A stretch of 32,000 nt of DNA, from assembly GCA_965219535.1 (NCBI GenBank), contig CBDCNV010000001.1, positions 1,530,001 to 1,562,000 of the forward strand, written 5' to 3'. Of the stretch, positions 10,681-30,866 are shown piece after piece. Every line of letters starts with the position of its first letter. The stretch's first letter is position 1. The notes beneath the pieces are model-generated. The model was given only the letters and a program-made list of their open reading frames with translations. It had not been told where the DNA came from and made no database searches. The stretch comes from Opitutales bacterium. Its GTDB lineage: Bacteria > Verrucomicrobiota > Verrucomicrobiia > Opitutales > PNEW01. Position numbers and translations under genes: made by a program.

Positions 10681-11775
10681 ATGAAAAAAGAAAAATTCGA
10701 TATGCAAATATCAAAAATATTCAGTATAGTTCTAGGCCTACATCTCCTTGTTTTCAGCATGCTTCTCATCGTGCCTGGTTGTGTGACAACAGAAGGTGAA
10801 TCAACAGCGACAGAACCCGTAAAACCCAGGGGTGAAACGATGAAATCGCCACCTCGTGTTCAACCGCCAAGCACGCGCTTAGATCCCGCCTTTAATGCGG
10901 GGCTGGCTAGCGGTAGCTCCCGACGAACGACAAAGGGAGGAAGATATCCACCCATGCGACCGACGGCAGAATTAGAAACGGACTCTATTCTCGAACCCCT
11001 TGGCGATTTGATTGATACCTCATATTCTACCTACACTGTTCAAAGTGGTGATAGTCCATGGTTAATCGCCAATGCCTATGGTATCCCCCTTGACGATTTG
11101 CTGAGAGCGAATGGCTTTACACGGGAAACCACTATCTATGTCGGCCAGGAGATTGTAATTCCCGGTGATGCAACGCGTGAAGATAGCGGTGATGCCCCTG
11201 TCGATTTCTCAATTTTGGATAGCGAGAACGAATACATGGTTGAACCTGGTGATACACTTTCGGGAATCGCAGCGCGCTATAATGTGAAAATTAATGCATT
11301 AAAGGGAATAAATAATTTAAGCAATGATGTTATCCTTGTAGGACAGATTCTGCAAATTCCCAGTGGGGGCAATTATACTACTGAGTCGATTAATATCTCT
11401 GAAGAAAGACTCTCCGATCCCTCAGCTTTAGGGAATGAGAATATCCATATAGTTCAGGAGGGAGAAACGCCGAATTTAATTGCCCGCAAGTATGGGCTAA
11501 AAACTGAGGACTTAATGCGAATAAATAAGATAAGCGATCCAAGAAAATTACAGCTTGGGCAATCATTGCTCATTGTGCTACCCGAAAGCACAGATGAAAG
11601 TCCAAGTATAACACCCTCGATAGAGACAGAGAGGGAAGAGTCGGAACCGGATCCTTTTGAGTTTCCGGATTGGGAAGACAGTCAACCCCCAAGCGTAGAA
11701 GATCTTGAACGTAGTCTTCTCGAAGAGGAAGATAAAATCCCCGTTATTCCTATCGAATCCGAAAGTAGCTATTAA
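10681..11775 (+). CDS. membrane-anchored or lipoprotein-type protein with three LysM peptidoglycan-binding domains and an acidic C-terminal tail
   Basis: The N-terminal hydrophobic segment ends in IVPGC (lipobox-like). Three LysM repeats are present: YTVQSGDSPWLIANAYGIPLDDLLRANGF...GQEIVIP; YMVEPGDTLSGIAARYNVKINALKGINNL...GQILQIP; HIVQEGETPNLIARKYGLKTEDLMRINKI...GQSLLIV. The tail is rich in E/D/P/S. Confidence 0.8.
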   Translation: MKKEKFDMQISKIFSIVLGLHLLVFSMLLIVPGCVTTEGESTATEPVKPRGETMKSPPRVQPPSTRLDPAFNAGLASGSSRRTTKGGRYPPMRPTAELETDSILEPLGDLIDTSYSTYTVQSGDSPWLIANAYGIPLDDLLRANGFTRETTIYVGQEIVIPGDATREDSGDAPVDFSILDSENEYMVEPGDTLSGIAARYNVKINALKGINNLSNDVILVGQILQIPSGGNYTTESINISEERLSDPSALGNENIHIVQEGETPNLIARKYGLKTEDLMRINKISDPRKLQLGQSLLIVLPESTDESPSITPSIETEREESEPDPFEFPDWEDSQPPSVEDLERSLLEEEDKIPVIPIESESSY

Positions 11776-14051: not shown

Positions 14052-16373
14052 ATGAGCGAGAGGATGAAAAGTTTATTTATGATCGGAATCGGGGGTATGG
14101 GCATGGCCCCCTTGGCGCTCTATTTGAGAAGCGGTGGACATAAAATCAGTGGCTATGATGATAATATTAGTAGCCCGATATCAAAGCTTCTGGAGAACAA
14201 TGATATCAATATAGAGTCGAAACCTGAGATTACAAAAGACATTGATGCCATTGTTTATTCAAGCGTGGTTGATGCAAGTCATCCCTGTTATCGTGCCGCG
14301 AGTGAACTCAAATTACCTCTAATGAAGCGGGGAGTGATGCTAGCCCGCGCGGTAGCGGATAAAAAGCTCATTGCTGTAGTAGGTAGTCACGGTAAAACGA
14401 CAACCTCAGGTATGCTTATCTCTGCACTGGAAAAAGAGGGATTTAAATTTGGTTATATTTTAGGGGTCTTATTCAATGATAATTACACCTTGCCCGCGAA
14501 GTTTAATCGTGATAGCGAGTGGGTGATCGCAGAGATCGATGAAAGTGATGGAACAATAAACGAATTTTCACCGGAAATAACACTTACGACAAATTTTGAT
14601 TGGGATCATCCAGATCAATATCCAAATCCAGGTGAATTGGAAAATACTTTTGAGCGACTTTTCCAGCGGACTGAAAAATCCGTTTTTTTTCCGGTGGACT
14701 GCAAATATTTAAAGCAATTATCTCAAGATAATATTACCGCTGATCGGTTGAGTTTCGGGGAGGATGGCGATTACGTGGGTATAATCTTAGAAAAGAGCCG
14801 TAAAAACCTATCATTAAAATTAAGTGGACGTTTTGCTGATAGTGAAGTATCGGTGCCGGTACCAGGACGTTTTAACGCGCTCAATGCTTTGGGCGCATTA
14901 GCCGTAACGCAGTACCTGACAACACATCTTGATAAGTATACACTTGAACTTTTTCCCGGAATATGGCGTCGGCAGACACTTCTCTATAGCGATCCTCAAT
15001 TAACTGTTTATGAAGATTATGCGCATCATCCTGAAGAGATTGGAGCCCTCTTAAACTTTATCCGTGAGGACTACCCCGATAATCAAATAGTCATTGTTTT
15101 CCAACCTCATCGCTATTCGCGAACCCTTCACTATAAAGAGGCATTCGCGGAAGTCCTGAAAAAAGCAAATGCATTTTACCTTCTCAATGTCTACGGGGCA
15201 AATGAGAGCCCTCTTGAGGGTGGGACGAGCGCTGATCTGCTCAAACTTCTGCCAGACATCTCAGAGGACAGAATTGTTACTTCGGTAGAAGAGTTGAGCG
15301 ACAGTCTTGAACAAAAATTAAAAGCACCTTCAGTTTTGCTTTTTATAGGTGCAGGTGATATCACAGAATGGGCCAAAGCCGTGGTCGCGAGAATAGAAAA
15401 TAAGCGCCAAAAAGTAATTAATGGTAATCAGACAATGACCAAAGAAGAAAAATGGTGGATCGATCTATCGCAAAAGATCGATAAGCAAACAAGAATAGCT
15501 GATTTTGAATCGCTCGCCGATAAAACGACCCTGCAAGTAGGAGGGAACACACGCTATTATTCAGAACCGGCATCGGAGGAAGATCTGCGTATCCTCCTAA
15601 GCGAGGCGAGTAAAAATAAAACTCCTGTATATTTTATCGGACGCGGTTCCAATCTGATCGTTCCGGATGAAGGGTTTCAAGGTTTAGTCATTCGGCTTAA
15701 TCATCAATATTGGAAACAAATTCGACCCCTGGGTGAGGGGCGCATTTGGGCGGGAGCGGGTGTCCGGTTAAATAAAATTTGTGTTGAAGGTATAAAACTG
15801 GGGCTCGCGGGCTTTGAGTTTCTCGAGGGGATACCAGGAACTCTTGGGGGATCATTGCGAATGAATGCTGGTGCGATGGGCGGATGGATATTCGATATCG
15901 TAGATGAAGTTCAGTTAGTTACCTTGGAGGGGGAATTTAAAAAGATAAAACGCGAAGATGTACACATCAGCTACCGGGCCTGTGAAGAGCTGAAAGATAC
16001 AGTAGCGATAGGAGCAATTTTATGCGCAACTTCAAGTGCAGAAGCAAAAACCATCCGCGAAAAAGTTAAGTCATTTTCAAGCATCCGAAAAGACAGTCAG
16101 CCTCGCGAGCCGAGCGCAGGGTGTATATTTAAAAACCCCGAGGGGTCGTACGCAGGACAGATCATTGATGAATTGGGACTCAAAGGGAGGCAGGTCGGAG
16201 CAGCTCAAGTTTCGAAGCTTCACGGTAATTTTATCATTAACCGTGGTGGAGCAACGAGCAAAGATGTTATATCATTGATAAAAGACATACGCCGAGAGGT
16301 TAAGGCTGATCGGGGGCTTGATCTCGAACCCGAAGTCCTCCTTATGGGTAAAAGTTGGGAAGAAGTTCTATGA
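14052..16373 (+). CDS. murC-murB: bifunctional fusion: UDP-N-acetylmuramate--L-alanine ligase (MurC, N-terminal) / UDP-N-acetylenolpyruvoylglucosamine reductase (MurB, C-terminal)
   Basis: A single 773-aa ORF. The N-terminal half has GIGGMGMAPLA, GSHGKTTT and a Mur-ligase layout. After residue ~490 comes a MurB FAD-binding domain (TTLQVGGNTRYY, GRGSNLIVPDEGF) and a C-terminal domain (SAGCIFKNP, GNFIIN). There is no stop or frameshift between the halves. Confidence 0.9.
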   Translation: MSERMKSLFMIGIGGMGMAPLALYLRSGGHKISGYDDNISSPISKLLENNDINIESKPEITKDIDAIVYSSVVDASHPCYRAASELKLPLMKRGVMLARAVADKKLIAVVGSHGKTTTSGMLISALEKEGFKFGYILGVLFNDNYTLPAKFNRDSEWVIAEIDESDGTINEFSPEITLTTNFDWDHPDQYPNPGELENTFERLFQRTEKSVFFPVDCKYLKQLSQDNITADRLSFGEDGDYVGIILEKSRKNLSLKLSGRFADSEVSVPVPGRFNALNALGALAVTQYLTTHLDKYTLELFPGIWRRQTLLYSDPQLTVYEDYAHHPEEIGALLNFIREDYPDNQIVIVFQPHRYSRTLHYKEAFAEVLKKANAFYLLNVYGANESPLEGGTSADLLKLLPDISEDRIVTSVEELSDSLEQKLKAPSVLLFIGAGDITEWAKAVVARIENKRQKVINGNQTMTKEEKWWIDLSQKIDKQTRIADFESLADKTTLQVGGNTRYYSEPASEEDLRILLSEASKNKTPVYFIGRGSNLIVPDEGFQGLVIRLNHQYWKQIRPLGEGRIWAGAGVRLNKICVEGIKLGLAGFEFLEGIPGTLGGSLRMNAGAMGGWIFDIVDEVQLVTLEGEFKKIKREDVHISYRACEELKDTVAIGAILCATSSAEAKTIREKVKSFSSIRKDSQPREPSAGCIFKNPEGSYAGQIIDELGLKGRQVGAAQVSKLHGNFIINRGGATSKDVISLIKDIRREVKADRGLDLEPEVLLMGKSWEEVL

Positions 16374-21064: not shown

Positions 21065-21111
21065 TAACGGGGCTAAAGTTAGTTTTCAGAATAGAACCGA
21101 CCCCCTAATTT

Positions 21112-21345
21112 CCTCATCTTCGTCTTCGTCTGCCTCATCGTCTTCGTCCAAAATAATTTCCGACAATATTTCGTCGCGTAATTTGCATCCGATGGTGGAA
21201 CACTTTGCCTGACGGCCATAGGCTATGCAACGGCTGTTTCCGAGCGCGTTTGATTCTGTCGTAATTTAAGAAGCGTGCTAGGGACAGCCCGCTCCACCTT
21301 AAATAGCTCATAGGACGAAGAGACAGACGAAGACGATGACGAAGC
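21112..21345 (+). promoter_or_regulatory. structured leader/element: ~165-nt core bracketed by inverted arrays of the heptamer CTTCGTC (left x3) and GACGAAG (right x3); the right arm covers the ATG at 21336
   Basis: Read directly. CTTCGTC occurs at 21118, 21124 and 21142. GACGAAG occurs at 21314, 21328 and 21338. A perfect 14-bp complement exists between 21135-21148 (TCATCGTCTTCGTC) and 21328-21341. Internal helices are possible: GGTGGA 21194-21199 / TCCACC 21293-21298; GGCTGT 21232-21237 / ACAGCC 21284-21289; AGCGCG 21243-21248 / CGTGCT 21274-21279. It matches no RNA family I can recognise. Confidence 0.35.
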
Positions 21346-22475
21346 TTATTATTAACGAGGCGGGTTCAGTTCTCGACAATAAAGCTTTACTTGCGGTCTC
21401 GACAGTTTTTACCCTTAGCAAGGTGAGTAAACTTGAAGGTATATTTGTCCCTAATATCGTTCCTTTTGATGAAGAGGGAAAAATAAATGAAGATGAATTG
21501 CGTCGCCAAACTAACTGGTTGATTGATAAGGGAGTCTCCGGTCTTTATCCCAATGGGAGTTCGGGTGAATTCATTCGGCTCAGTTTCGAAGAGCGTAAGC
21601 GAATTATCGCAATTATGAGCAGTGAGGTGAGGGGGCGAGTGCCTATTCTCGCAGGGGGTGCTGAAGCAAATCTGGATATGATTCTTGAGGCCTGTAAAAC
21701 CTACGCTGATTATGGTTGTTCTGCCGTTTCTATTACTGGTCCTTATTATTACAATGTAAGCCAGGAAAGTATTGAGGAACTTTTTCGAGAGATTGCTGCT
21801 AAATCACCAATAGGGATCGTCATGTATAATATCCCCCAGTTTTCCAATGAAATCAGTGTACCGGTGGTTAAGCGTTTGGCCTTGGATTGTCCCAATATTG
21901 TCGGGATTAAAGACAGCAGCCGCGATATGCCGCGTTTTATTAATACCCTGAATGAAATTAAACCCCAACGTCCTGATTTCAGTGTTCTCGTAGGTTGTGA
22001 GGAAATACTATTTTCCACACTGATGATGGGAGGCGATGGGGGGACAATAGCAACCTCTGGAGTTGTCCCAGAGGCAGTAATGAAGCTCTATAATTGTTTT
22101 CTCTCGGGAGATCTGGACGAAGCAAAGCGGATTCAGTTTAAGCTTTTAGATCTCATTAACACAATGCTTTATGCTCCCGATTTTCCCCATGGATTTCGCA
22201 TCGGCTACGAATTAAGAGGATTCAATATGGGCAGTTCCCGTTACGTGCTTTCGCCGCGTGAGAAAGTGGAGTTGGATAATATCCGTTCAAAAGTTGCCTG
22301 CCTGCTCACGGAATGTGGTTTCGAAGAAGCGGCGAATAAGTGTCATATGCCAAGGGCAGATCTCGCACAACCATATAAAGGCACAACATTGGCAGACAAA
22401 CAGCCCTCTAGGGGAAAGACCGTTGACGTGGACAAAATAGTAGACGAGGTACTACGGAGTCTTGGTAAGAAATAA
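21336..22475 (+). CDS. DHDPS/N-acetylneuraminate-lyase-family class I (Schiff-base) pyruvate aldolase with a 50-aa C-terminal extension (linker plus amphipathic helix); N-terminal start ambiguous (ATG 21336 or GTG 21423)
   Basis: Family motifs are present: NGSSGEF (GxxGE), MYNIP (YN.P tyrosine) and VGIKDSS (Schiff-base lysine). The canonical N-terminus SKLEGIFVPNIVPFDEEGKINEDEL begins at the GTG at 21423. The family is normally ~290-300 aa; this ORF is 379 aa. The tail is EEAANKCHMPRADLAQPYKGTTLADKQPSRGKT-VDVDKIVDEVLRSLGKK. Confidence 0.85.
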   Translation: MTKLIINEAGSVLDNKALLAVSTVFTLSKVSKLEGIFVPNIVPFDEEGKINEDELRRQTNWLIDKGVSGLYPNGSSGEFIRLSFEERKRIIAIMSSEVRGRVPILAGGAEANLDMILEACKTYADYGCSAVSITGPYYYNVSQESIEELFREIAAKSPIGIVMYNIPQFSNEISVPVVKRLALDCPNIVGIKDSSRDMPRFINTLNEIKPQRPDFSVLVGCEEILFSTLMMGGDGGTIATSGVVPEAVMKLYNCFLSGDLDEAKRIQFKLLDLINTMLYAPDFPHGFRIGYELRGFNMGSSRYVLSPREKVELDNIRSKVACLLTECGFEEAANKCHMPRADLAQPYKGTTLADKQPSRGKTVDVDKIVDEVLRSLGKK

Positions 22476-22498: not shown

Positions 22499-23140
22499 AT
22501 GGCAAAAACCTCTGAAGCGATCACCGCCTTGGGCTTTGCCGAGGTTCCTTTCTGGAGTATTGGCGCGGTGGTGGCAGATACGATGGTTAAAGAGGCCAGG
22601 GTGACGCTGCTGGGGTTAGATACTACCGCCCTTGAAAATATCTTAATCCGCGTTGCCGGTGATGTATCAGATGTCAAATCCTCACTGCAAACCGCGATCG
22701 ATTTTGGCCGTGAACTGGGGGTAGAAGTAATTATCGGTGTTATTCCTTCTCCGGAGAGTGGATTTGATAAGGCGGTTAATTACCCCAATGCCATCAATCC
22801 TATTTATGGGGCACGTGAACAATTTTTACCAAGCGATTATAAAATAACACAGAAACAAAATATGAATGATAATCAACATGCATTAGGATTCCTGGAAACG
22901 CAGGGGCTTGTCGCGGTTTTAGAAGCAACGGATGCGATGCTCAAATCCGCAAATGTCACCCTTGTGGGAAAAGAAAAAATTGGGGCTGCTTATGTCACCG
23001 TGGTAGTAAAGGGTGACGTTGCGGCGGTCACCGCGGCGGTTGACGCCGGTAAAGAAGCGGTTAATGGATTAGGTACCCTTATCGCTTCACATGTAATTGC
23101 GCGACCCCATGCTGATCTTGCTGCGCTTCTTCCCGCTTAA
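22499..23140 (+). CDS. bacterial microcompartment shell protein, tandem BMC-domain (BMC-T type)
   Basis: Two Pfam00936-like domains sit in one 213-aa ORF. Domain 1 is ALGFAEVPFWSIGAVVADTMVKEARVTLLGL...IRVAGDVSDVKSSLQTA. Domain 2 is ALGFLETQGLVAVLEATDAMLKSANVTLVGKEKIGAAYVTVVVKGDVAAVTAAVDAGKEA (near-consensus). There are no cysteines. It starts 23 nt after the aldolase stop. Confidence 0.9.
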   Translation: MAKTSEAITALGFAEVPFWSIGAVVADTMVKEARVTLLGLDTTALENILIRVAGDVSDVKSSLQTAIDFGRELGVEVIIGVIPSPESGFDKAVNYPNAINPIYGAREQFLPSDYKITQKQNMNDNQHALGFLETQGLVAVLEATDAMLKSANVTLVGKEKIGAAYVTVVVKGDVAAVTAAVDAGKEAVNGLGTLIASHVIARPHADLAALLPA

Positions 23141-23248: not shown

Positions 23249-24403
23249 ATGATTAAACATATTTTTTCGGTAATAGTCATCTCTGTTTTATTTATAACCA
23301 GTAGTCCAATGAAAGAGAAAATATCAATGAATCAGACTGATCTCTATGTAAGTGGCAGTGAAGGCTATCACACATACCGTATCCCCGCATTGCTCGTATC
23401 AAAAAAAGATACAGTGTTGGCGTTTTGCGAAGGGCGTAAAACGGGTCAAAGCGATACTGGAGATATTGATATGCTCGTCAGATGTTCTGAAGACGGCGGT
23501 AAAACCTGGAGTAAACAAGAGGTAATCTGGGATGATGCGGCGAATGTCTGTGGCAATCCCTGTCCGGTTTTAGATGAAGAGACGGGTAAAATCTGGCTCT
23601 TAATGACCTGGAATCTTGGGACTGATTGTGAGAGCGAGATCATCGCCCAAACAAGCGATGATACGCGGCGAATTTATGTAACTTCCTCCCGTGACGATGG
23701 TTTGACTTGGGAAACGCCAAAAGAGATCACGTCATCGGTTAAGGAACCTGGGTGGACATGGTATGCAACTGGACCCTGTACGGGAATTCAGATTCAAGAG
23801 GGAAAATATAAAGGACGTCTTATCATACCCTGTGACCACATAGAAGCTGGGACGAAGAAATACTATTCCCATGTAATTTATTCGGAAGATCATGGTGAGT
23901 CGTGGGAATTAGGGGGAAGGACACCGGTTGACCAGGTGAATGAATGCCAGGCGGTGGAACTTGCGGACGGTAGTATTATGCTCAATATGCGTAATTACGA
24001 TCGAAGCAAACATACGCGCGCCGTTTCTATAAGTCATGATGGCGGCATAACGTGGGGTCCGCTAAACCGGGATCCTGCACTCATTGAACCAATTTGTCAG
24101 GGGAGTATTATTCGTTACACGCATGGTGCTCACGCAGATAAAAACCGAATCCTTTTTAGTAATCCCGCCAGTAAAACAGATCGGGAGAGAATGACCGTTA
24201 GGCTCAGTTACGACGAGGGTAAAACCTGGGCGGCATCAAAATTACTCCATGAGGGCCCTTCAGCTTATTCTGATCTTGCGGTTTTACCTCAGTGTGAAAT
24301 TGCCTGTTTTTATGAACGCGGGGAAACTCACCCTTACGAGAAAATCACTTTGGCCATCCTGGATCTATCCTCGTTGACGGATGGAGAGGATGTTCTCAAA
24401 TAG
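23249..24403 (+). CDS. exo-alpha-sialidase (GH33, BNR/Asp-box beta-propeller), probable signal peptide
   Basis: It has the YRIP (RIP) motif and FCEGRK. Five Asp-boxes are present: SEDGGKTWS, SRDDGLTWE, SEDHGESWE, SHDGGITWG, SYDEGKTWA. The C-terminal YSDL....FYERG contains the nucleophile Tyr/Glu region. The N-terminus MIKHIFSVIVISVLFITSSP is signal-peptide-like. Confidence 0.9.
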   Translation: MIKHIFSVIVISVLFITSSPMKEKISMNQTDLYVSGSEGYHTYRIPALLVSKKDTVLAFCEGRKTGQSDTGDIDMLVRCSEDGGKTWSKQEVIWDDAANVCGNPCPVLDEETGKIWLLMTWNLGTDCESEIIAQTSDDTRRIYVTSSRDDGLTWETPKEITSSVKEPGWTWYATGPCTGIQIQEGKYKGRLIIPCDHIEAGTKKYYSHVIYSEDHGESWELGGRTPVDQVNECQAVELADGSIMLNMRNYDRSKHTRAVSISHDGGITWGPLNRDPALIEPICQGSIIRYTHGAHADKNRILFSNPASKTDRERMTVRLSYDEGKTWAASKLLHEGPSAYSDLAVLPQCEIACFYERGETHPYEKITLAILDLSSLTDGEDVLK

Positions 24404-24407
24404 CGTC

Positions 24408-25439
24408 ATGGCCAGAATCAATGATCATCGCGAGTATTCACAAGGTAAAGTACCGTTGATTGATGTCGAGGGGACGGCCTTCGAATGCGGTGTCATGCTC
24501 GGTTACGCCTGGCAGGAGTCTTTACAGCTTAGGGCAAGCCGGATTGTTCACGGTTCAATTCCGTGGTGGAAGAATAAAAAATTCAACCGGCTCATAAAAA
24601 AATTTACACCTCATATCCCTGATGTATTTCTTGGAATGGCAAAGGGTTCGGGATTAAATGAAAATCAGATAGGAACTATCGGTCACGTAGAAGATGACGG
24701 GTGCACTTCTTTTGCGATTCAACCATCCGCGTCCCTCGACGGCATCCCTATTTCGGGACAATCTAAGGACACCGACGCATTCCGACAGTTTCAATTTCAA
24801 GTACTGCGTCTGAAGATGAGTAACGCGCCATCGGCATTAACGCTTACCTACCCGGGGTGGCTTTTTGGGCACGGATTTGTTCAAGGTCGTTGTTCAATTT
24901 TTCGCAATGCACTCTACGTTGATAACCCCAAGGGCGACCTGCCTTATTCGGCTTGGGGATTGATTGCTTTGCACTGCTCGTGTGTCGATGAGGTTATAGA
25001 ATTCACAAAACAATATCGGATTGAATTATGTGCTCACTGTACTGTTGCCGATGGGAAGGGTGGAGTAGCGGGAATTGAAATCACACCCCATGGAATTGGT
25101 ATTCTTAAACCCAAGCGTGGAATATATACCCATGCGAATTGTGTTGTTTCAAATAAACGCTTCGCAAAGACGGAAAATTTCGGTCAATTTACGCGTGAAA
25201 ATTCGCTTATGCGTGAAAGCACACTACGTAAGAATCTGGAACCTAACAACGGTCGATTGACTGCGCAGTTAGTTTACTGCAGCTTTTGTAATTTCATTGA
25301 CTTTCCCGAAAGTATCGATCGTCACGCTGGCGATGACGCACTAACCACTTCCGTCGTCATCGCAGAGCCAACCCTAGGTAAATTGCATGTCACGCGTGGG
25401 GCCGCTTCACGTAATTGGCCGGAAACTTACAGTTTGTAA
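24408..25439 (+). CDS. peptidase C45 / acyl-CoA:6-aminopenicillanic-acid acyltransferase-family Ntn-hydrolase-fold protein
   Basis: It has a Gly-Cys self-processing/nucleophile context (VEDDGCTSFAI) about 100 aa from the N-terminus, with size and layout typical of the family. ATG 24408 lies 4 nt after the sialidase stop. The ORF is open from 24381. Confidence 0.7.
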   Translation: MARINDHREYSQGKVPLIDVEGTAFECGVMLGYAWQESLQLRASRIVHGSIPWWKNKKFNRLIKKFTPHIPDVFLGMAKGSGLNENQIGTIGHVEDDGCTSFAIQPSASLDGIPISGQSKDTDAFRQFQFQVLRLKMSNAPSALTLTYPGWLFGHGFVQGRCSIFRNALYVDNPKGDLPYSAWGLIALHCSCVDEVIEFTKQYRIELCAHCTVADGKGGVAGIEITPHGIGILKPKRGIYTHANCVVSNKRFAKTENFGQFTRENSLMRESTLRKNLEPNNGRLTAQLVYCSFCNFIDFPESIDRHAGDDALTTSVVIAEPTLGKLHVTRGAASRNWPETYSL

Positions 25440-25828: not shown

Positions 25829-26857
25829 CTAGGCGTGAGCGGGGACGGTCTCCTTAACGAGTTCGACTAACTTATCCGCGTTGGGGAGATAGAATTTTTC
25901 CAATTCTGGTGAGAATGGCACGGGTGTATGTGGAGGGGTGAGCATCTTTGGCGCTGCATTAAGACTGTCAAACGCCTTGGAGGAAGCGAGAGCCACAACA
26001 TCCGTTGCAATGGAGCACCGTGGATTGTCTTCATCGACAACAATTAGATGCCCTGTTTTTCGCACTGAATTCAGAATCAATTCCTCATCAAGCGGTGACA
26101 TCGAACGAGGATCAATCACTTCCACACTAATATCATCTTGCTCCAGTTTTAACGCTGCTTCATAGGCGATGAGCACCATCTTTGAAAAAGCTACGATTGT
26201 TATATCTGTACCCTCACGAACGACCTCTCCTTTCCCCAGGGGAAGAAGATACTCTTCTTCGGGAACCGGCCCTTTGGTGTCATAGAGCCCCTTGTGCTCG
26301 ACAAAGATTACAAGGTCGTCATCACGAATCGCTGATTTCAACAGACCTTTAGCGTCATAGGGAGTTGATGGGGTGACCAGTTTTAACCCCGGGAGGTGAA
26401 CGAGAAGGGAGTGGCAGGAATGTGAATGCTGGGCCGCAGCGTTAAACCCTCCCCCGATCATTGTCCGCATGACCATTGGGACCTTCGCTTTTCCTCCGAA
26501 CATATAACGCATGGCTGATGCCTGGTTCATGATCTGATCGAGACAGAATCCAAGAAAATCGATAAACATTAATTCTACGATGGGTCGCATCCCGCTGGCC
26601 GCTGCACCCGCGGCGCAACCTACAATGGCACCTTCGGTTATTGGGGTGTCGCGGACACGCGATTTCCCGAATTTTCCGACCAGTCCTTTGGAGACACCGA
26701 ACGGACCACCCCACGCATCAAACTCATCTGGGGCTTCATTTTGCGCACCCCCGGCTATATCCTGTCCAAGGATAAAAACGCTTTCGTCACGCTGCATTTC
26801 TTCGTGTAGCGCTTCATTGAGGGCTTGCCGGTAAGTAACTTTTTTTCTATCAGCCAT
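25829..26857 (-). CDS. 2-oxoacid (pyruvate/acetoin) dehydrogenase E1 component, beta subunit
   Basis: 342 aa with a transketolase-like pyrimidine-binding and C-terminal domain layout. The sequence (VTYRQALNEALHEEM...VFILGQDI...RVRDTPITE...PRSMSPLD) is typical of PdhB/AcoB. Confidence 0.9.
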   Translation of the reverse strand: MADRKKVTYRQALNEALHEEMQRDESVFILGQDIAGGAQNEAPDEFDAWGGPFGVSKGLVGKFGKSRVRDTPITEGAIVGCAAGAAASGMRPIVELMFIDFLGFCLDQIMNQASAMRYMFGGKAKVPMVMRTMIGGGFNAAAQHSHSCHSLLVHLPGLKLVTPSTPYDAKGLLKSAIRDDDLVIFVEHKGLYDTKGPVPEEEYLLPLGKGEVVREGTDITIVAFSKMVLIAYEAALKLEQDDISVEVIDPRSMSPLDEELILNSVRKTGHLIVVDEDNPRCSIATDVVALASSKAFDSLNAAPKMLTPPHTPVPFSPELEKFYLPNADKLVELVKETVPAHA

Positions 26858-26875
26858 GACTTAATACTCCTAAAT

Positions 26876-27886
26876 TTAATAATTCACGTATACATCATTC
26901 AGACAGTCTTCGGGTTCGGGAAAGGGAGAAGACCTGCCAAATTCAATTGCTTTTTTAATAACATCCGCGACTTTCTCATCGATGGCTTTCATTTCTTCTG
27001 GAGTAACGCCGATCGCTGGCGCGACATTATTGGCGAATAGGACGAGCGGGTCGCGTTTTCGCGCTTCAATGGCTTCGTTTGGATCACGATATTTTAAGTT
27101 ATCTCCCTCGAAGTGTCCATAGAAGCGGGTCGTTTTGCATTCAAGTAGGGAGGGCCCTTTCCCCGCGCGGGCATGTTTAGCGGCTTCTTTAGTCGCCCGG
27201 TGAACGGCGATAATATCCTGGCCGTCAACAATAACACCCGGAATATTATAGGATTTAGCGCGTTCAGCGAGGTCCTTTACATTCATGGCATAGGAGGTCG
27301 CTGTCGTCTGGGCATAGCCATTGTTTTCACAGACGAAAACGCAGGGCAGATCCCAGATCGATGCCAGGTTGAGGGATTCATGAAAGATACCTTCGTTCGT
27401 AGCGCCATCCCCGAAAAAGCAGACTGCTACCTGACCGCTATTTCGCAATTGGGCGGAGAGTGCCGCACCCACGGCAATCGGTGTGCTACCAGCAACGATA
27501 CCGTTGGCTCCGAGCATCCCCTTAGAAAAGTCGGCGATATGCATCGATCCTCCCTTTCCTTTGCAAATACCCGTTACACGACCATAGAGTTCTGCCATCA
27601 TGCCATCTAATTCTACTCCCTTGGCGACGCAATGTCCATGACCACGATGGGTAGAAGTGATATAATCGTCATCGTTTATTGCGGTCATTACACCGGAGGC
27701 TATGGCCTCTTCACCCACGTAGCAGTGGACGAAACCGGGGAGCTCTCCCGCCGCAAAAAGTTCGTGAACGGCTTCGTCAAAGTCACGAACGCGTCGCATG
27801 TTTTCATACATCTTTAACCCCATTGCATGATCAATATCAGCAAATGATGTGGTCTCTTTGGGGGTTTCAGTTGTTACCTCAGCCAT
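26876..27886 (-). CDS. 2-oxoacid (pyruvate/acetoin) dehydrogenase E1 component, alpha subunit (TPP-binding)
   Basis: It has the TPP motif FFGDGATNEG...(N)NGYA, plus FVHCYVGEEA and STHRGHGH. Its ATG lies 1 nt after the E2 stop. Confidence 0.9.
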   Translation of the reverse strand: MAEVTTETPKETTSFADIDHAMGLKMYENMRRVRDFDEAVHELFAAGELPGFVHCYVGEEAIASGVMTAINDDDYITSTHRGHGHCVAKGVELDGMMAELYGRVTGICKGKGGSMHIADFSKGMLGANGIVAGSTPIAVGAALSAQLRNSGQVAVCFFGDGATNEGIFHESLNLASIWDLPCVFVCENNGYAQTTATSYAMNVKDLAERAKSYNIPGVIVDGQDIIAVHRATKEAAKHARAGKGPSLLECKTTRFYGHFEGDNLKYRDPNEAIEARKRDPLVLFANNVAPAIGVTPEEMKAIDEKVADVIKKAIEFGRSSPFPEPEDCLNDVYVNY

Positions 27887-27887
27887 T

Positions 27888-28901
27888 TTATCCGTCCTCC
27901 AATCTCAGGTTTTCTATTTTATCAACTAAGTCTTTTAAAAAAGTGGCTCCTGCAGCGCCATCGGCCACGCGGTGATCTAAAGTTAAACCTAATTCAATAA
28001 ATGGCGCAAGAGCTATCTGACCATTGTCTCCAGAAACGGCAAGTTGCTGAATGCGTCCAACGGAAAGAATGCCGGTTTGAGAGGGGTAAAGCAAAGCAGT
28101 AAAACGATCGACTGGAAACATTCCCAGATTGGTGACGGAAAAGGTTCCACCTTCCAGTTCATCCGTCAGAGCACTGCGTGAGCGCACCAGTTCGACGAGA
28201 TATTTCCTCTCCTCACAGATCTCGGGAAGTGATAAGCCACAGGCCCCTTTGACTACAGGAATCATCAACCCCTCTTCCATGGCGATGGCGAGGCCGACAT
28301 TTGCCTGGGAATGGATGCGCAACCCAGCATCTTCATAGGAGGAATTAAGACGGGGATGTTCTTTCAAGGTTCGGGAGACACAGAAAATTATAACATCATC
28401 ATAGGCAATAGTTCTATCCACTTCGCGAAGCTCCATCATTCTTGAGGCGGAAGCGCGGGTGAAAAGAGTAATCTGCGGGACAGCTGCTGAATGGGTGACG
28501 GTACGTGTAATTGCTTTACGCATATCCGACCAGGGTTCCAAACTGCCTTCATCCTGTTGCGTTACTTTTTGCTCTATAGGAGCAGCTTCCGAAGATACAG
28601 CCGTTGCGACTGGGGTTCCTGATTGATCAGGGTCTTCAGTTGAAATATCACTTTCCGATTCACCTTCCGCGAGGATCCATGCGATTGTTTCGGCGACATC
28701 GATTTCATCGCCCTCCTGCGCGGTAATACGCGCGAGCGTACCGTCTGCCGGTGAACTCAACTGGTTAACGATTTTATCGGTTTCGATCTCCGCGATTTCC
28801 TGTTTTTTTTCTATCTTGTCCCCTTCTTTAACAAGCCAGGAGACGAGTGTTCCTTCAGTCATCGTCAAACCGAGTTTAGGCATTTTTACAGGAACAGGCA
28901 T
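27888..28901 (-). CDS. dihydrolipoamide acyltransferase (E2): lipoyl domain plus catalytic domain, without a peripheral-subunit-binding domain
   Basis: The lipoyl-lysine motif EIETDKI lies in residues 1-78. An acidic/Pro-Ser-Thr linker spans 79-~122. The catalytic domain carries FSVTNLG and the active-site DHRVADGA. No GTGPGGRI-type E3/E1-binding motif is present. It is 337 aa, against the ~400+ aa usual for E2. Confidence 0.88.
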   Translation of the reverse strand: MPVPVKMPKLGLTMTEGTLVSWLVKEGDKIEKKQEIAEIETDKIVNQLSSPADGTLARITAQEGDEIDVAETIAWILAEGESESDISTEDPDQSGTPVATAVSSEAAPIEQKVTQQDEGSLEPWSDMRKAITRTVTHSAAVPQITLFTRASASRMMELREVDRTIAYDDVIIFCVSRTLKEHPRLNSSYEDAGLRIHSQANVGLAIAMEEGLMIPVVKGACGLSLPEICEERKYLVELVRSRSALTDELEGGTFSVTNLGMFPVDRFTALLYPSQTGILSVGRIQQLAVSGDNGQIALAPFIELGLTLDHRVADGAAGATFLKDLVDKIENLRLEDG

Positions 28902-28982
28902 GGTCTTAAAAATGTTTAATCATTCATCAGCAATAATGTGAATAAAAAAAGATATTTATCTTATATTAACATAGATATAAAA

Positions 28983-29759
28983 TCATATACCTTTCATAAG
29001 AAATCCCCCGTCGATGTAAATGTCCTGACCGGTAATATAACTGGAAGCATCAGAAGCTAAAAAGATGACCAATCCGGATAGATCATCGAGCTGGCCCCAG
29101 CGGTTTAAAAATGTTGTTTCGGCTCTCTCTTTGCGTTTTTCAGGATCATTCCAGGATTTTTCGGAGATCTGTGTTCTAAAATAGCCGGGGCCAATCGCAT
29201 TGGCTCTAACGCCGAATTCCCCCAGATCCATGGCGAGTGATTTAGTAAGCTGTTTAAGACCCCCCTTAGAAGCGATATAAGCAGGGTTATCTGTAAACCC
29301 GCGTTCCGCATTTATGCTTGTAATATTGATAATCGAGCCATTTCCCTGTTCCTTCATCAATTTCCCCATGCGCTTACTCAGCTGAAATGGCGCTTCCAGG
29401 TTTACCTTCATTGTTTCATTCCACAATTCGTCGGGGTAATCCAGACCATCGCGCTGAAAGCTTACCCCTGCGCAATTTACTAATATGTCGATTCTCTGAT
29501 GGTCCGATTTTATATAATATACGAGCGCGTCCATCTGTTTCAGGTCAGTGAGATCGCAGTACTTTTCGCATGCATTTAACCCCTCGCTCTTTAGCTTCTC
29601 TTTCCTCTCGGTAAGAAGCTGTTGATCCCTATCAACGAGAACGACCGTAGCTTCCGCTTTGAGTAGTGCATTGGCCAATGCGCCGCCAATGCCGCCACAA
29701 GCGCCCGTGACAATGGCGATTTTGCCTTTCAGAGAGAAGAGTTTATTTAAGTAGGTCAT
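28983..29759 (-). CDS. short-chain dehydrogenase/reductase (classical SDR; KduD/gluconate-5-dehydrogenase/butanediol-dehydrogenase-like)
   Basis: It has the cofactor motif TGACGGIGGALA, NCAGV, the catalytic S...YIASK, and PG..RT. It is 258 aa. Confidence 0.85.
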   Translation of the reverse strand: MTYLNKLFSLKGKIAIVTGACGGIGGALANALLKAEATVVLVDRDQQLLTERKEKLKSEGLNACEKYCDLTDLKQMDALVYYIKSDHQRIDILVNCAGVSFQRDGLDYPDELWNETMKVNLEAPFQLSKRMGKLMKEQGNGSIINITSINAERGFTDNPAYIASKGGLKQLTKSLAMDLGEFGVRANAIGPGYFRTQISEKSWNDPEKRKERAETTFLNRWGQLDDLSGLVIFLASDASSYITGQDIYIDGGFLMKGI

Positions 29760-29882: not shown

Positions 29883-30866
29883 GTGATCCGTTTTTCCGTA
29901 TTTTTCATCATCGCAGTTATTCTCTGCGCTTGCTCAAGGCATGAAGAATCGGGATATCGTCTTGCCGTCATACCTAAAGGATCGACACATGTATTCTGGA
30001 GATCCATTCATGCAGGGGCAGTCAAAGCCGAGAGAGAATTTAATGATGCAGGCGTCCCGGTTGAAATAATTTGGAAAGGACCGTTGCAGGAAGATAATCG
30101 GACCGCGCAAATTTATGTCGTTGAGAATTTTATAGGACAACAGGTAAATGGTATCGTCCTGGCACCCCTTGATGATACAGCGATTGTGGCACCGGTAGAT
30201 AAAGCCTACCGGGCAGGGATTCCGGTTGTGGTCATAGATTCCGGTCTCAATTACGATAAAAATGTAAGTTTTGTCGCCACGGATAATTTCAACGGGGGAC
30301 AGATTGCCGGTGAATACCTGGCAGAACTGCTTAAAGGTAAAGGCAAGGTAATTATGCTTCGCGTGCTCGTCGGTTCCGCCAGCGGAACGGCGCGGGAAGA
30401 AGGTTTTCTAGAGGTGATGAAAAAAAACCCTGGGATCGAGTTACTATCGACGAATAAATACGCGGGCGCCACACGCGATACCGCGCAAAGCGCTTCACAG
30501 AATTTACTCAACCGATTTGGTGACGTCGTGGATGGTATATATACACCCAATGAATCTTCAACCAATGGGATGCTGCTCGCGCTGCGTTCCATCGGCCGAG
30601 CGGGCGGTCAGGTTAAATTTGTGGGCTTCGATGGGGGAGAGCAGAACGTTCAGGGTCTGGAAAAAGGAGATATTCAAGGTCTTGTCATTCAGGATCCTTT
30701 TAAGATGGGCTACCTCGGTGTTAAAACCATGATCGAGCACCTGCAAGGTACGATTGTTGAAAAACGGATTGATACGGGAGCGACTCTCGTGACACTGAAT
30801 AATATCCAAAATGAAAAAATTCAAAATCAGTTATTTCCACCCTTAGACGAATATTTAGAATATTAA
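29883..30866 (+). CDS. periplasmic sugar-binding protein (type I PBP, RbsB/LsrB-like), probable lipoprotein
   Basis: It uses a GTG start. The signal sequence with Cys (FFIIAVILCAC) is followed by a typical monosaccharide-binding PBP sequence (RLAVIPKGSTHVFW...VNGIVLAP...PVVVIDS...FVGFDG). No permease or ATPase gene is adjacent. Confidence 0.8.
   Translation: MIRFSVFFIIAVILCACSRHEESGYRLAVIPKGSTHVFWRSIHAGAVKAEREFNDAGVPVEIIWKGPLQEDNRTAQIYVVENFIGQQVNGIVLAPLDDTAIVAPVDKAYRAGIPVVVIDSGLNYDKNVSFVATDNFNGGQIAGEYLAELLKGKGKVIMLRVLVGSASGTAREEGFLEVMKKNPGIELLSTNKYAGATRDTAQSASQNLLNRFGDVVDGIYTPNESSTNGMLLALRSIGRAGGQVKFVGFDGGEQNVQGLEKGDIQGLVIQDPFKMGYLGVKTMIEHLQGTIVEKRIDTGATLVTLNNIQNEKIQNQLFPPLDEYLEY

Follow-up and report, generated by a model that had tools for sequence, protein, structure and literature searches.

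The locus analyzed here raises the question of why an aldolase of familiar fold carries about 50 additional residues at its C-terminus and lies directly upstream of a gene for a microcompartment shell protein. It is situated in a stretch of 32,000 nucleotides from an Opitutales bacterium (Verrucomicrobiota; GenBank assembly GCA_965219535.1, contig CBDCNV010000001.1, positions 1,530,001 to 1,562,000 of the forward strand), referred to below as the window. The gene in question (21423..22475, plus strand; PF00701, E = 1e-56) starts with a GTG at 21423 and encodes a class I aldolase of 350 aa belonging to the dihydrodipicolinate synthase (DHDPS)/N-acetylneuraminate lyase (NAL) family. A preliminary description of the window had proposed that the C-terminal tail is an encapsulation peptide (EP) of a bacterial microcompartment (BMC). 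Our analysis indicates that this is probably so, and that the tail would recruit the aldolase to a metabolosome of the Planctomycetes-Verrucomicrobia (PVM) type.

The open reading frame (ORF) of the PF00701 aldolase extends through nucleotides 22323-22475, which encode EEAANKCHMPRADLAQPYKGTTLADKQPSRGKTVDVDKIVDEVLRSLGKK and the stop codon, and the earlier translation of this stretch was exact. Structure prediction, which had been proposed as a check on the tail, returned a disordered linker followed by a terminal helix. In the AlphaFold2 (AF2) model, which was built as a single chain from a 121-sequence alignment (mean pLDDT 86.9), the (beta/alpha)8 barrel and the C-terminal helical bundle extend to about residue 297 (residues 1-297, 21423..22313). 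Beyond this fold, a short helix occupies residues 301-306, the stretch 317-333 is disordered (pLDDT < 50), and the terminal helix assigned by DSSP spans residues 336-348 with a pLDDT of ~67-74. The phmmer alignments with solved DHDPS and YagE end at aldolase residues 255-288, and the Foldseek alignments with DHDPS, YagE, and NAL cover ~295-305 of the 350 columns, with TM scores of 0.85-0.91 by target and 0.72-0.78 by query. Taken together, the sequence and fold matches extend to about residues 283-305 of the 350. As the matches to solved structures end before the tail, the last ~50 residues are extra to the aldolase fold, which confirms the extra residues that had been claimed. A tail forming an integral part of the aldolase fold was not seen, the solved relatives stopping before it.

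The linker (residues 298-333, 22314..22421) begins at the conserved junction ECGFEEAANKC, which contains Cys298 and Cys307, and continues into the non-conserved HMPRADLAQPYKGTTLADKQPSRGKT; no column conservation was found along it with either 25 or 121 homologues. The predicted EP (residues 334-350, 22422..22472, VDVDKIVDEVLRSLGKK) is supported by the DSSP helix, the hydrophobic moment, and the family motif. Its hydrophobic residues at i, i+3, i+4, i+7, i+8, and i+11 are V336, I339, V340, V343, L344, and L347, in the pattern originally described. The hydrophobic moment of the helix DVDKIVDEVLRSL was 0.78, compared with 0.32 ± 0.15 for 10,000 shuffles, of which a fraction of 0.0008 reached 0.78. 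A PduD peptide, scored in the same way, gave a similar moment. The helix has an acidic or mixed polar face (D335, D337, D341, and E342), the net charge of its core is about -2, and aromatic residues are absent. The last ~53 residues most likely constitute a bipartite targeting extension, in which a flexible linker of ~36 aa is followed by an amphipathic helix of 13-17 aa.

The junction between fold and linker has a feature of its own. Cys293, Cys298, and Cys307 (22299-22343) lie in the sequence 'ACLLxECGFxEAAxxC' and are invariant or nearly so in the 121 homologues of Verrucomicrobiota type; Cys293 belongs to the last helix of the fold, just upstream of the linker. The Planctomycetota proteins retain the first and the last junction cysteine ('LQCLL…GGC'). 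These cysteines could form a disulfide, a metal site, or a redox site beside the tail.

The tail is a property of the family and not of the window alone. More than 100 database homologues from Verrucomicrobiota-type metagenome-assembled genomes (MAGs), with identities of 64-91%, are all ~335-360 aa long and share the invariant junction CGFxEAAxxC, an unalignable linker, and the conserved end 'D.D.IVREVM..L'. A scan of one genome per species retrieved at least 589 aldolase loci. The best 80 of these, which were examined, come from Verrucomicrobiota or Planctomycetota, with the exception of a few records whose titles say otherwise and which are presumed to be mislabelled MAGs. At 45-54% identity, the Planctomycetota aldolases have the C-terminal sequence 'x[DE]VxxIVQxVVAELKRRG'. 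Of 197 family members, drawn from Verrucomicrobiota (64-91% identity) and Planctomycetota (45-54%), 192 retain the helix motif [DE]x[DE]xIVxxVxxxL, and in those carrying the pattern it always stands 2-14 residues from the C-terminus. The linker, in turn, varies in length from just a few residues to over 60, with a median of ~24-28 aa past the junction. Conservation of the helix over two phyla while the linker varies argues that the pattern is more than chance and that the tail is under selection.

Relatives without the tail were also observed. Within the clade, the tail is truly missing in two members (L026 and L044), neither of which adjoins a BMC-T gene. The tail of two others (L033 and L041) is short (…LNSMLEKLRQRLP), possibly an EP whose linker is reduced to a minimum. 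Outside the clade, relatives were sought by a HMMER pass over 1.84 billion representatives at 50% identity, a set in which the aldolase clade collapses to very few sequences. The tail is present in the representative at 60% identity (P0121), and the representatives at 35-50% identity are 300-320 aa long with ordinary C-termini that lack it. The closest tail-less outgroup (P0124, 50% identity, 308 aa) is encoded in an operon of a short-chain dehydrogenase/reductase (SDR), the aldolase, and a dehydratase of the mandelate racemase/muconate lactonizing enzyme (MR/MLE) group, and no shell gene was found within the 13 kb retrieved for this locus. A comparison of orthologues with and without BMC genes had been suggested, and its outcome agrees with the EP proposal: the tail-less L026, L044, and P0124 are all without an adjacent BMC-T gene.

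Two more distant relatives have extensions of other kinds. P0141 (37% identity, 390 aa; gene 1480-2652 of locus L167) has a C-terminal extension of its own, consisting of a Cys-rich segment CTQCGMCDGVADC with a weak match to Fer4_17 and then an EP-like helix 'SKEAIKSIVDETVKRIK' ('EAIKSIVDETVKRIK'); the neighboring genes on its short contig encode a periplasmic binding protein and a DUF386 protein. It may be an independently tagged enzyme of the DHDPS family. P0122 (46% identity; positions 723-3708 of L168, also in L170) is extended by ~85 aa at its N-terminus and lacks a C-terminal helix, and its gene directly follows those of a 192-aa BMC protein and a 384-aa fusion of multiple BMC domains. 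By eye, this N-terminal extension looked like the start of the PVM class II aldolase protein, but BLASTP returned no alignment and the likeness was dropped.

The second line of evidence is the gene next door. As described earlier, a BMC shell gene begins 23 nt downstream of the aldolase, with its start at 22499. The encoded protein of 213 aa (22499..23140, plus strand) contains two tandem PF00936 domains according to Pfam, and the gene was therefore assigned to a BMC-T shell protein. A BMC-T homologue adjoins the aldolase in ~47 of the 80 genome loci, in both phyla and down to 34% BMC-T identity. In ~45 of these, it lies downstream on the same strand, at spacings from a 24-bp overlap to a gap of ~480 bp and mostly below 200 bp; in the other two, it lies just upstream (L042) or downstream on the opposite strand (L057). 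The reciprocal test was a metagenome scan with a BMC-T alignment, which gave at least 498 confirmed loci; the best 80 were taken, and 69 of them had at least 400 bp of upstream sequence. The aldolase was found immediately upstream of BMC-T in 62 of these 69 loci, and the remainder included one with the aldolase 3.2 kb off and one with an aldolase remnant. Gene order in these loci suggests that the aldolase and BMC-T form a portable two-gene module, which occurs as a satellite, as in the window, or fused to a main locus.

Such fusions, observed in at least five distinct loci, connect the pair to a particular organelle. In L015 (identical in sequence to L151), L142, L152, and L158, the aldolase-BMC-T pair directly abuts a complete PVM-type locus, and in L025, on a contig of 4.6 kb, extra BMC-domain genes come right after the pair. 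The full locus, checked with Pfam, comprises a PduL-type phosphotransacylase (PF06130), three BMC-H, three BMC-P, an aldehyde dehydrogenase (AldDH, PF00171), and a class II aldolase (PF00596), which is the gene set published for PVM microcompartments (PMC4207490; Sutter 2021, PMC8217296, Supplementary Data 2). These microcompartments are confined to Planctomycetes and Verrucomicrobia (Sutter 2021 Supplementary Data 2, PMC8217296), and the phyla of the aldolase family, judged from the best 80 of at least 589 loci, coincide with them. The BMC-T of the window is consistent with the 'T_pvm' (Ts_mud) clade, described as ~202-207 aa long and encoded in main or satellite PVM loci (Sutter 2021, PMC8217296), a placement made by size and host phyla and not by sequence comparison.

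The PVM-type loci also allow the tail to be compared with EPs encoded only a few genes away. The AldDH has the N-terminal EP 'NETLIRDIVSDVLSRLNG', after which comes a linker rich in Pro and Ala, and the class II aldolase ends in the C-terminal EP '...AVKAITDQIMAGITK' or '...EAESAVKAITDQIMAGITK'. In the same loci, the DHDPS-family aldolase ends in 'GVNVDQIVHEVLKTLGK', with the pattern common to both of these EPs. The AldDH segment IVSDVLSRL nearly equals IVHEVLKTL of the aldolase tail, five hydrophobic positions being superposed.

The tail was then set against the features by which EPs are recognized (Aussignargues 2015, PMC4594438, after Kinney et al. as cited there). It is a terminal extension missing from non-BMC homologues (the solved structures, the relatives at 35-50% identity, and P0124), it contains an amphipathic helix of ~12-18 residues with few aromatics and little Pro, and this helix is preceded by a poorly conserved, variable linker rich in small residues and Pro. 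Its host gene is encoded with shell genes, as seen from both directions of linkage and from the PVM fusions. Pooled over the family, the helix consists of 30% I/L/V, 44% K/R/D/E/Q/N, 0.6% aromatic residues, and 2.3% Pro, and the linker of 32% G/A/S and 12.5% Pro. These compositions agree with Table 2 of Aussignargues 2015 for the aldolase and AldDH EPs, the published values for aldolase EPs being 34% ILV, 38% KRDEQN, 0.7% aromatic residues, and 0% Pro (PMC4594438). In every respect that can be tested at the level of sequence, the tail has the character of a published EP (PMC4594438), which supports the interpretation first given to it.

What the aldolase would contribute to an organelle depends on its reaction. 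Membership in PF00701 is indicated by the Pfam match, by the Foldseek TM scores of ~0.9 to DHDPS, YagE, and NAL, and by the catalytic residues: the Schiff-base lysine K163 (GIKDSS; codon 21909-21911, plus strand), Y135, and the GS(T/S)GEF motif (G45-S46-x-G48-E49) are invariant in the 121 homologues. Automatic annotation names many of the homologues '4-hydroxy-tetrahydrodipicolinate synthase' (DapA). Assignment as DapA was rejected, as the score was 142 bits against a TIGR00674 cut-off of 206 and Phe replaces Arg138 (YNIPQFS compared with YNVPGRT). NanA was likewise rejected (146.6 and 125.9 bits against cut-offs of 281 for NF003164 and 382 for TIGR00683), as was the archaeal 2-keto-3-deoxygluconate (KDG) aldolase, for which the score was below the NCBIfam cut-off. 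The best sequence matches among solved structures include YagE, a 2-keto-3-deoxy-sugar-acid aldolase.

Gene neighborhoods were surveyed in 98 loci with enough flanking DNA. A sugar-acid dehydratase of the enolase superfamily was observed within 4 kb in 20 of them and an SDR within 4 kb in 15; both often stand directly upstream of the aldolase, and several loci have the gene order SDR-dehydratase-aldolase-BMC-T. In NCBIfam, the sugar-acid dehydratases most resembled those for L-rhamnonate, L-talarate/galactarate, galactonate, and arabinonate, with every score short of its cut-off. In the non-phosphorylative route of sugar breakdown, a sugar is converted via its lactone to the sugar acid and the 2-keto-3-deoxy acid, which is then cleaved into pyruvate and an aldehyde. 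On the basis of these neighbors and this pathway, a keto-deoxy-sugar-acid aldolase is the most economical reading. We consider it an even call that the enzyme is a 2-keto-3-deoxy-sugar-acid aldolase yielding an aldehyde that the organelle contains. With 2-keto-3-deoxy-L-fuconate or -L-rhamnonate (6-deoxyhexonates) as the substrate, the aldehyde released would be L-lactaldehyde; with a pentonate, it would be glycolaldehyde.

In the mechanism that we propose, the hydrophobic face formed by V336, I339, V340, V343, L344, and L347 would make contact with shell proteins, with further cargo that carries EPs, or with both, in the manner of the Pdu and Eut systems (PMC4594438). Binding would package the aldolase into the PVM-type metabolosome, where it would cleave a non-phosphorylated 2-keto-3-deoxy-sugar acid into pyruvate and an aldehyde. 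The EP-tagged AldDH would oxidize this aldehyde in the lumen, and the PduL-type phosphotransacylase would take on the resulting acyl-CoA. More speculatively, BMC-T might be a shell tile that passes the anionic substrate or pyruvate, or a docking site for the aldolase.

Several observations weigh against encapsulation in a PVM-type organelle or against the substrate class. The AF2 model has a single chain, and packing of the helix on the aldolase tetramer remains compatible with it. BMC-T is the sole shell gene in the 32 kb of the window, and the main-locus set of BMC-H, BMC-P, and AldDH is not in the window; the window is therefore a satellite locus by the usual definition (PMC4207490; PMC8217296). 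For about a quarter of the genes with the tail (33 of 135), a shell gene is missing from the surrounding ~10 kb, and for three contigs with a lone aldolase (9.9 Mb, 1.5 Mb, and 0.69 Mb), no BMC-T was found among the best 120 matches listed. When 141 informative loci were pooled, 102 had both the tail and an adjacent BMC-T, 33 the tail without adjacency, two adjacency without the tail, and four neither. Both cases of adjacency without the tail are artefacts, one a pattern miss (L135) and the other a frameshift (L138). The Fisher test on the pooled table gave p = 0.04 for a sample that was picked by BMC-T similarity and is hence biased, so the case for linkage rests on the two directional counts, from aldolase to BMC-T and from BMC-T to aldolase. 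With regard to the substrate, dehydratase and SDR neighbors occur in ~20% of the loci, and the window has instead a sialidase-like BNR protein and a C45 hydrolase.

The tight reciprocal pairing of the aldolase with one BMC-T clade, and not with BMC-H, would also be expected if the tail were an external docking peptide that holds the enzyme on the cytosolic face of BMC-T and hands the aldehyde through the pore. The divergent first BMC domain of BMC-T could then be a dedicated receptor, and the cytosol needs the pyruvate product. This arrangement appears improbable to us, given that the tail is nearly identical in pattern to the N-terminal EP of the AldDH of the same loci, an enzyme of the luminal core in characterized metabolosomes (PMC4594438). 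Furthermore, 33 of the 135 tail-bearing genes are not beside BMC-T, and a reactive aldehyde freed outside the shell defeats the purpose of the organelle. The helix could instead be unrelated to microcompartments and serve in membrane targeting, oligomerization, or autoregulation, its adjacency to BMC-T reflecting shared regulation. The membrane-targeting sequences of FtsA and MinD have the same architecture of a flexible linker and a terminal amphipathic helix, the confidence of AF2 in the helix is only moderate, and the quarter of tail-bearing genes without an adjacent shell gene would be accounted for. Nevertheless, the polar face of the helix is acidic or mixed and not cationic, aromatics are absent, and the composition agrees with the EP tables (PMC4594438). 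The adjacency to BMC-T extends over two phyla, in both directions and down to 34% BMC-T identity, tail-less relatives occur in equivalent sugar-acid operons without BMC-T, and the family is confined to the PVM phyla, which together make a role outside microcompartments very improbable.

A third alternative bears on the substrate and not on targeting. In the window, the aldolase and BMC-T genes are followed by one for a BNR/sialidase-like protein that has a signal peptide, and genes for a GlcNAc 2-epimerase and a PIG-L deacetylase lie near the aldolase in L001 and L002. In addition, PRK04147, a model for NanA, was one of the best-scoring NCBIfam matches (146.6 bits). The aldolase might on this basis be an encapsulated N-acetylneuraminate lyase, the partner of the sialidase-like protein, that feeds sialic acid to the organelle. 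The score, however, is far below the NanA cut-offs of 281 and 382, and the sialidase-like neighbor was found in only four of the 98 loci, all from close relatives of the window, whereas dehydratases and SDRs recur across the family; for this reason, a role in sialic acid metabolism was downgraded. The catalytic domain is conserved across the differing neighborhoods (mean column identity 72-74%), and N-acetylmannosamine (ManNAc), the aldehyde that such a lyase would form, is a stable cyclic sugar, which would be an atypical reason for sequestration. Taken for the family as a whole, this function is unlikely and unsupported, and for the lineage of the window it is possible.

Among known systems, the nearest counterpart of the tail is the EP of the PVM/GRM5 class II aldolase (PF00596, fuculose/rhamnulose-phosphate type), which is like it in terminus and in type of organelle. 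The class II enzyme has a linker of 23-81 aa and an amphipathic helix of 12-17 aa (PMC4594438), the same build as in the window aldolase. Both are aldehyde-generating 'signature' aldolases, and they are encoded in one locus in L015, L142, L152, and L158. They are unrelated in fold and chemistry: the class II aldolase is metal-dependent and releases dihydroxyacetone phosphate (DHAP) from a sugar phosphate, whereas the window enzyme is a class I TIM barrel of the Schiff-base type, with pyruvate from a non-phosphorylated keto-deoxy acid as product and a BMC-T of its own. The N-terminal EPs of PduD, PduP, EutC, and AldDH have the same hydrophobic periodicity and helix length as the aldolase tail, and the PduD segment IIEDVLR is very close to the aldolase core IV(x)EVL(x)xL. 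The Pdu and Eut peptides are N-terminal, belong to other enzyme families, and are experimentally proven, whereas the aldolase tail is C-terminal and known from sequence.

The two-gene arrangement also has a parallel in the 'EUT module' satellites (EutABC and an EutL-type BMC-T; PMC8217296), in which a signature enzyme is likewise accompanied by one BMC-T. EUT modules were proposed to widen the substrate range of HO and SPU microcompartments (Sutter 2021, PMC8217296). Each of the two modules occurs apart from or fused to a main locus and is plausibly a plug-in of substrate and pore; they differ in enzyme, BMC-T clade, host phyla, and presumed substrate. A DHDPS-family enzyme beside shell genes, as in the window, is also found near the MUF2 loci of Gemmatimonadetes, where a pfam00701 aldolase is listed (Sutter 2021 Supplementary Data 2). 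The P0122 locus resembles MUF2 with its quadruple BMC-H fusions (PMC8217296) but has no C-terminal EP, and the paper claims none. Compared with YagE/YjhH and NAL, the window aldolase has the same fold (Foldseek TM ~0.9 by target), Schiff-base Lys, and Tyr, and the Arg138 of DapA is absent; those enzymes share 24-30% identity with it, are 290-300 aa long, and have neither a C-terminal extension nor a link to shell genes.

The preliminary description held that DHDPS/NAL aldolases are not among the classic encapsulated enzymes, and the searchable literature agrees. The proteins with an EP are enumerated in Aussignargues 2015 (PMC4594438), according to which no further ones were known. Sutter 2021 (PMC8217296) mentions pfam00701 a single time, for MUF2, with no claim of an EP; the aldolase-BMC-T module is not discussed in its text or supplementary text, although its diagram of PVM satellites is an image and may depict the module unremarked. 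No DHDPS, class I aldolase of the PF00701 type, or N-acetylneuraminate lyase was found as microcompartment cargo in the searchable literature, nor anything relevant on fuconate, and the sole paper there on an encapsulated class I aldolase concerns deoxyribose-phosphate aldolase (DERA, PF01791), which belongs to another family. As far as the searchable literature goes, the targeting device is a standard EP, and what is undescribed is the family to which the cargo belongs, its formation of pyruvate, and the constant pairing of aldolase and BMC-T.

A tentative but serious possibility is that the aldolase and BMC-T act as a mobile cartridge for substrate extension, which would bring a second, non-phosphorylative route, ending in pyruvate and lactaldehyde or glycolaldehyde, into the PVM organelle beside the classical route via fuculose/rhamnulose phosphate, with the co-inherited BMC-T as a dedicated pore or receptor for the keto-deoxy acid and pyruvate. 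Microcompartment types are defined by the signature enzyme that makes the sequestered aldehyde, and a tagged DHDPS/NAL aldolase would be the second such enzyme for PVM. The PVM organelles of two phyla would then have two signature enzymes of unrelated folds, and one tile would be matched to one cargo. The PVM organelle is a major route of fucose and rhamnose turnover in marine and soil Verrucomicrobiota and Planctomycetota (PMC8217296, PMC8857213), and the module occurs on the scale of at least 589 species-level genome loci and at least 498 metagenomic BMC-T loci. If the cartridge is real, the sugars and pathways assigned to PVM organelles in metabolic reconstructions would change, and engineered microcompartments would gain a compact C-terminal tag with a matching tile. 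The pairing of one cargo with one BMC-T is a clean natural case, useful for testing how cargo and tile recognize each other.

The length of 350 aa given above for the aldolase follows from a correction of its start. The ORF at 21336-22475 (plus strand), for which PF00701 (E = 1e-56) was the sole Pfam match, begins in the ORF list with an ATG at 21336 and would encode 379 aa. This start was rejected, as the 29 added residues are not conserved, the codon is missing in L007 (an Opitutales MAG chromosome 98% identical to the window), and the frame is broken in L087. In L002, a relative with 90% identity, an ATG stands at the exact position of the GTG at 21423 of the window. Thus, the aldolase was assigned 350 aa, which is also the length of the closest homologues in the database, and the correction leaves the tail unaffected.

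The DNA upstream of the corrected start has two further features. A stretch of ~80 nt abutting the GTG (21343-21422) is almost invariant in the window, L007, L002, and L087, while the remaining intergenic DNA diverges. It contains a direct repeat TCTCGACA at 21371 and 21397 (26-nt spacing) and is a candidate operator or 5' leader of the aldolase-BMC-T pair. Further upstream, between purS and the aldolase, there is an inverted repeat composed of short GACGAAGA-like repeats, with 29-nt arms at 21114-21142 and 21314-21342 that are 86% complementary and separated by 171 nt; similar arms are recognizable in L002 and L087. The 251-nt stretch that includes it (21100-21350) had a folding energy of -83.9 kcal/mol, compared with -61.4 ± 4.5 kcal/mol for shuffles (z = -5.0). 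The repeat could be an insertion resembling a miniature inverted-repeat transposable element (MITE), a structured leader, or a terminator. No Rfam match was found anywhere in the 32-kb window, the inverted repeat included.

In the layout of the window, the division and cell wall (dcw) cluster, of which ftsA and ftsZ are the last genes, is followed by purS and the aldolase-BMC-T pair. Further genes encode a secreted BNR/sialidase-like protein, a C45-family hydrolase, and, on the opposite strand, the E1-alpha, E1-beta, and E2 components of a 2-oxoacid dehydrogenase together with an SDR. The region right after BMC-T (23249-25439) contains the BNR/sialidase-like gene, whose product has a signal-peptide-like N-terminal segment, and an overlapping gene for the C45-family autoproteolytic acyltransferase/hydrolase. 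This sialidase/C45 neighborhood is limited to the lineage of the window (four of the 98 loci), in which the close relatives L001 and L002 have the GlcNAc 2-epimerase and PIG-L deacetylase genes near the aldolase. The E1-beta/E1-alpha/E2 (lipoyl) set and the SDR (25829-29759, minus strand) are convergent to the aldolase-BMC-T-sialidase block. The best similarities in this set were to gluconate 5-dehydrogenase/KduD-type and L-rhamnose 1-dehydrogenase-type proteins, all below the cut-off, and the set might act on the pyruvate formed by the aldolase or on a related sugar acid. A periplasmic sugar-binding protein is encoded after it (29883-30866).

Two observations concern the dcw cluster itself. 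A single protein of ~770 aa (14052-16373; 2637-4946 in L001/L002) is a MurC-MurB fusion, in which a MurC-like Mur ligase domain is joined to FAD_binding_4 and MurB_C domains, as called with Pfam for the syntenic genes in L001 and L002. In the same two relatives, a LysM-repeat protein is encoded just upstream of ftsW, and the corresponding ORF of the window is 10681-11775.

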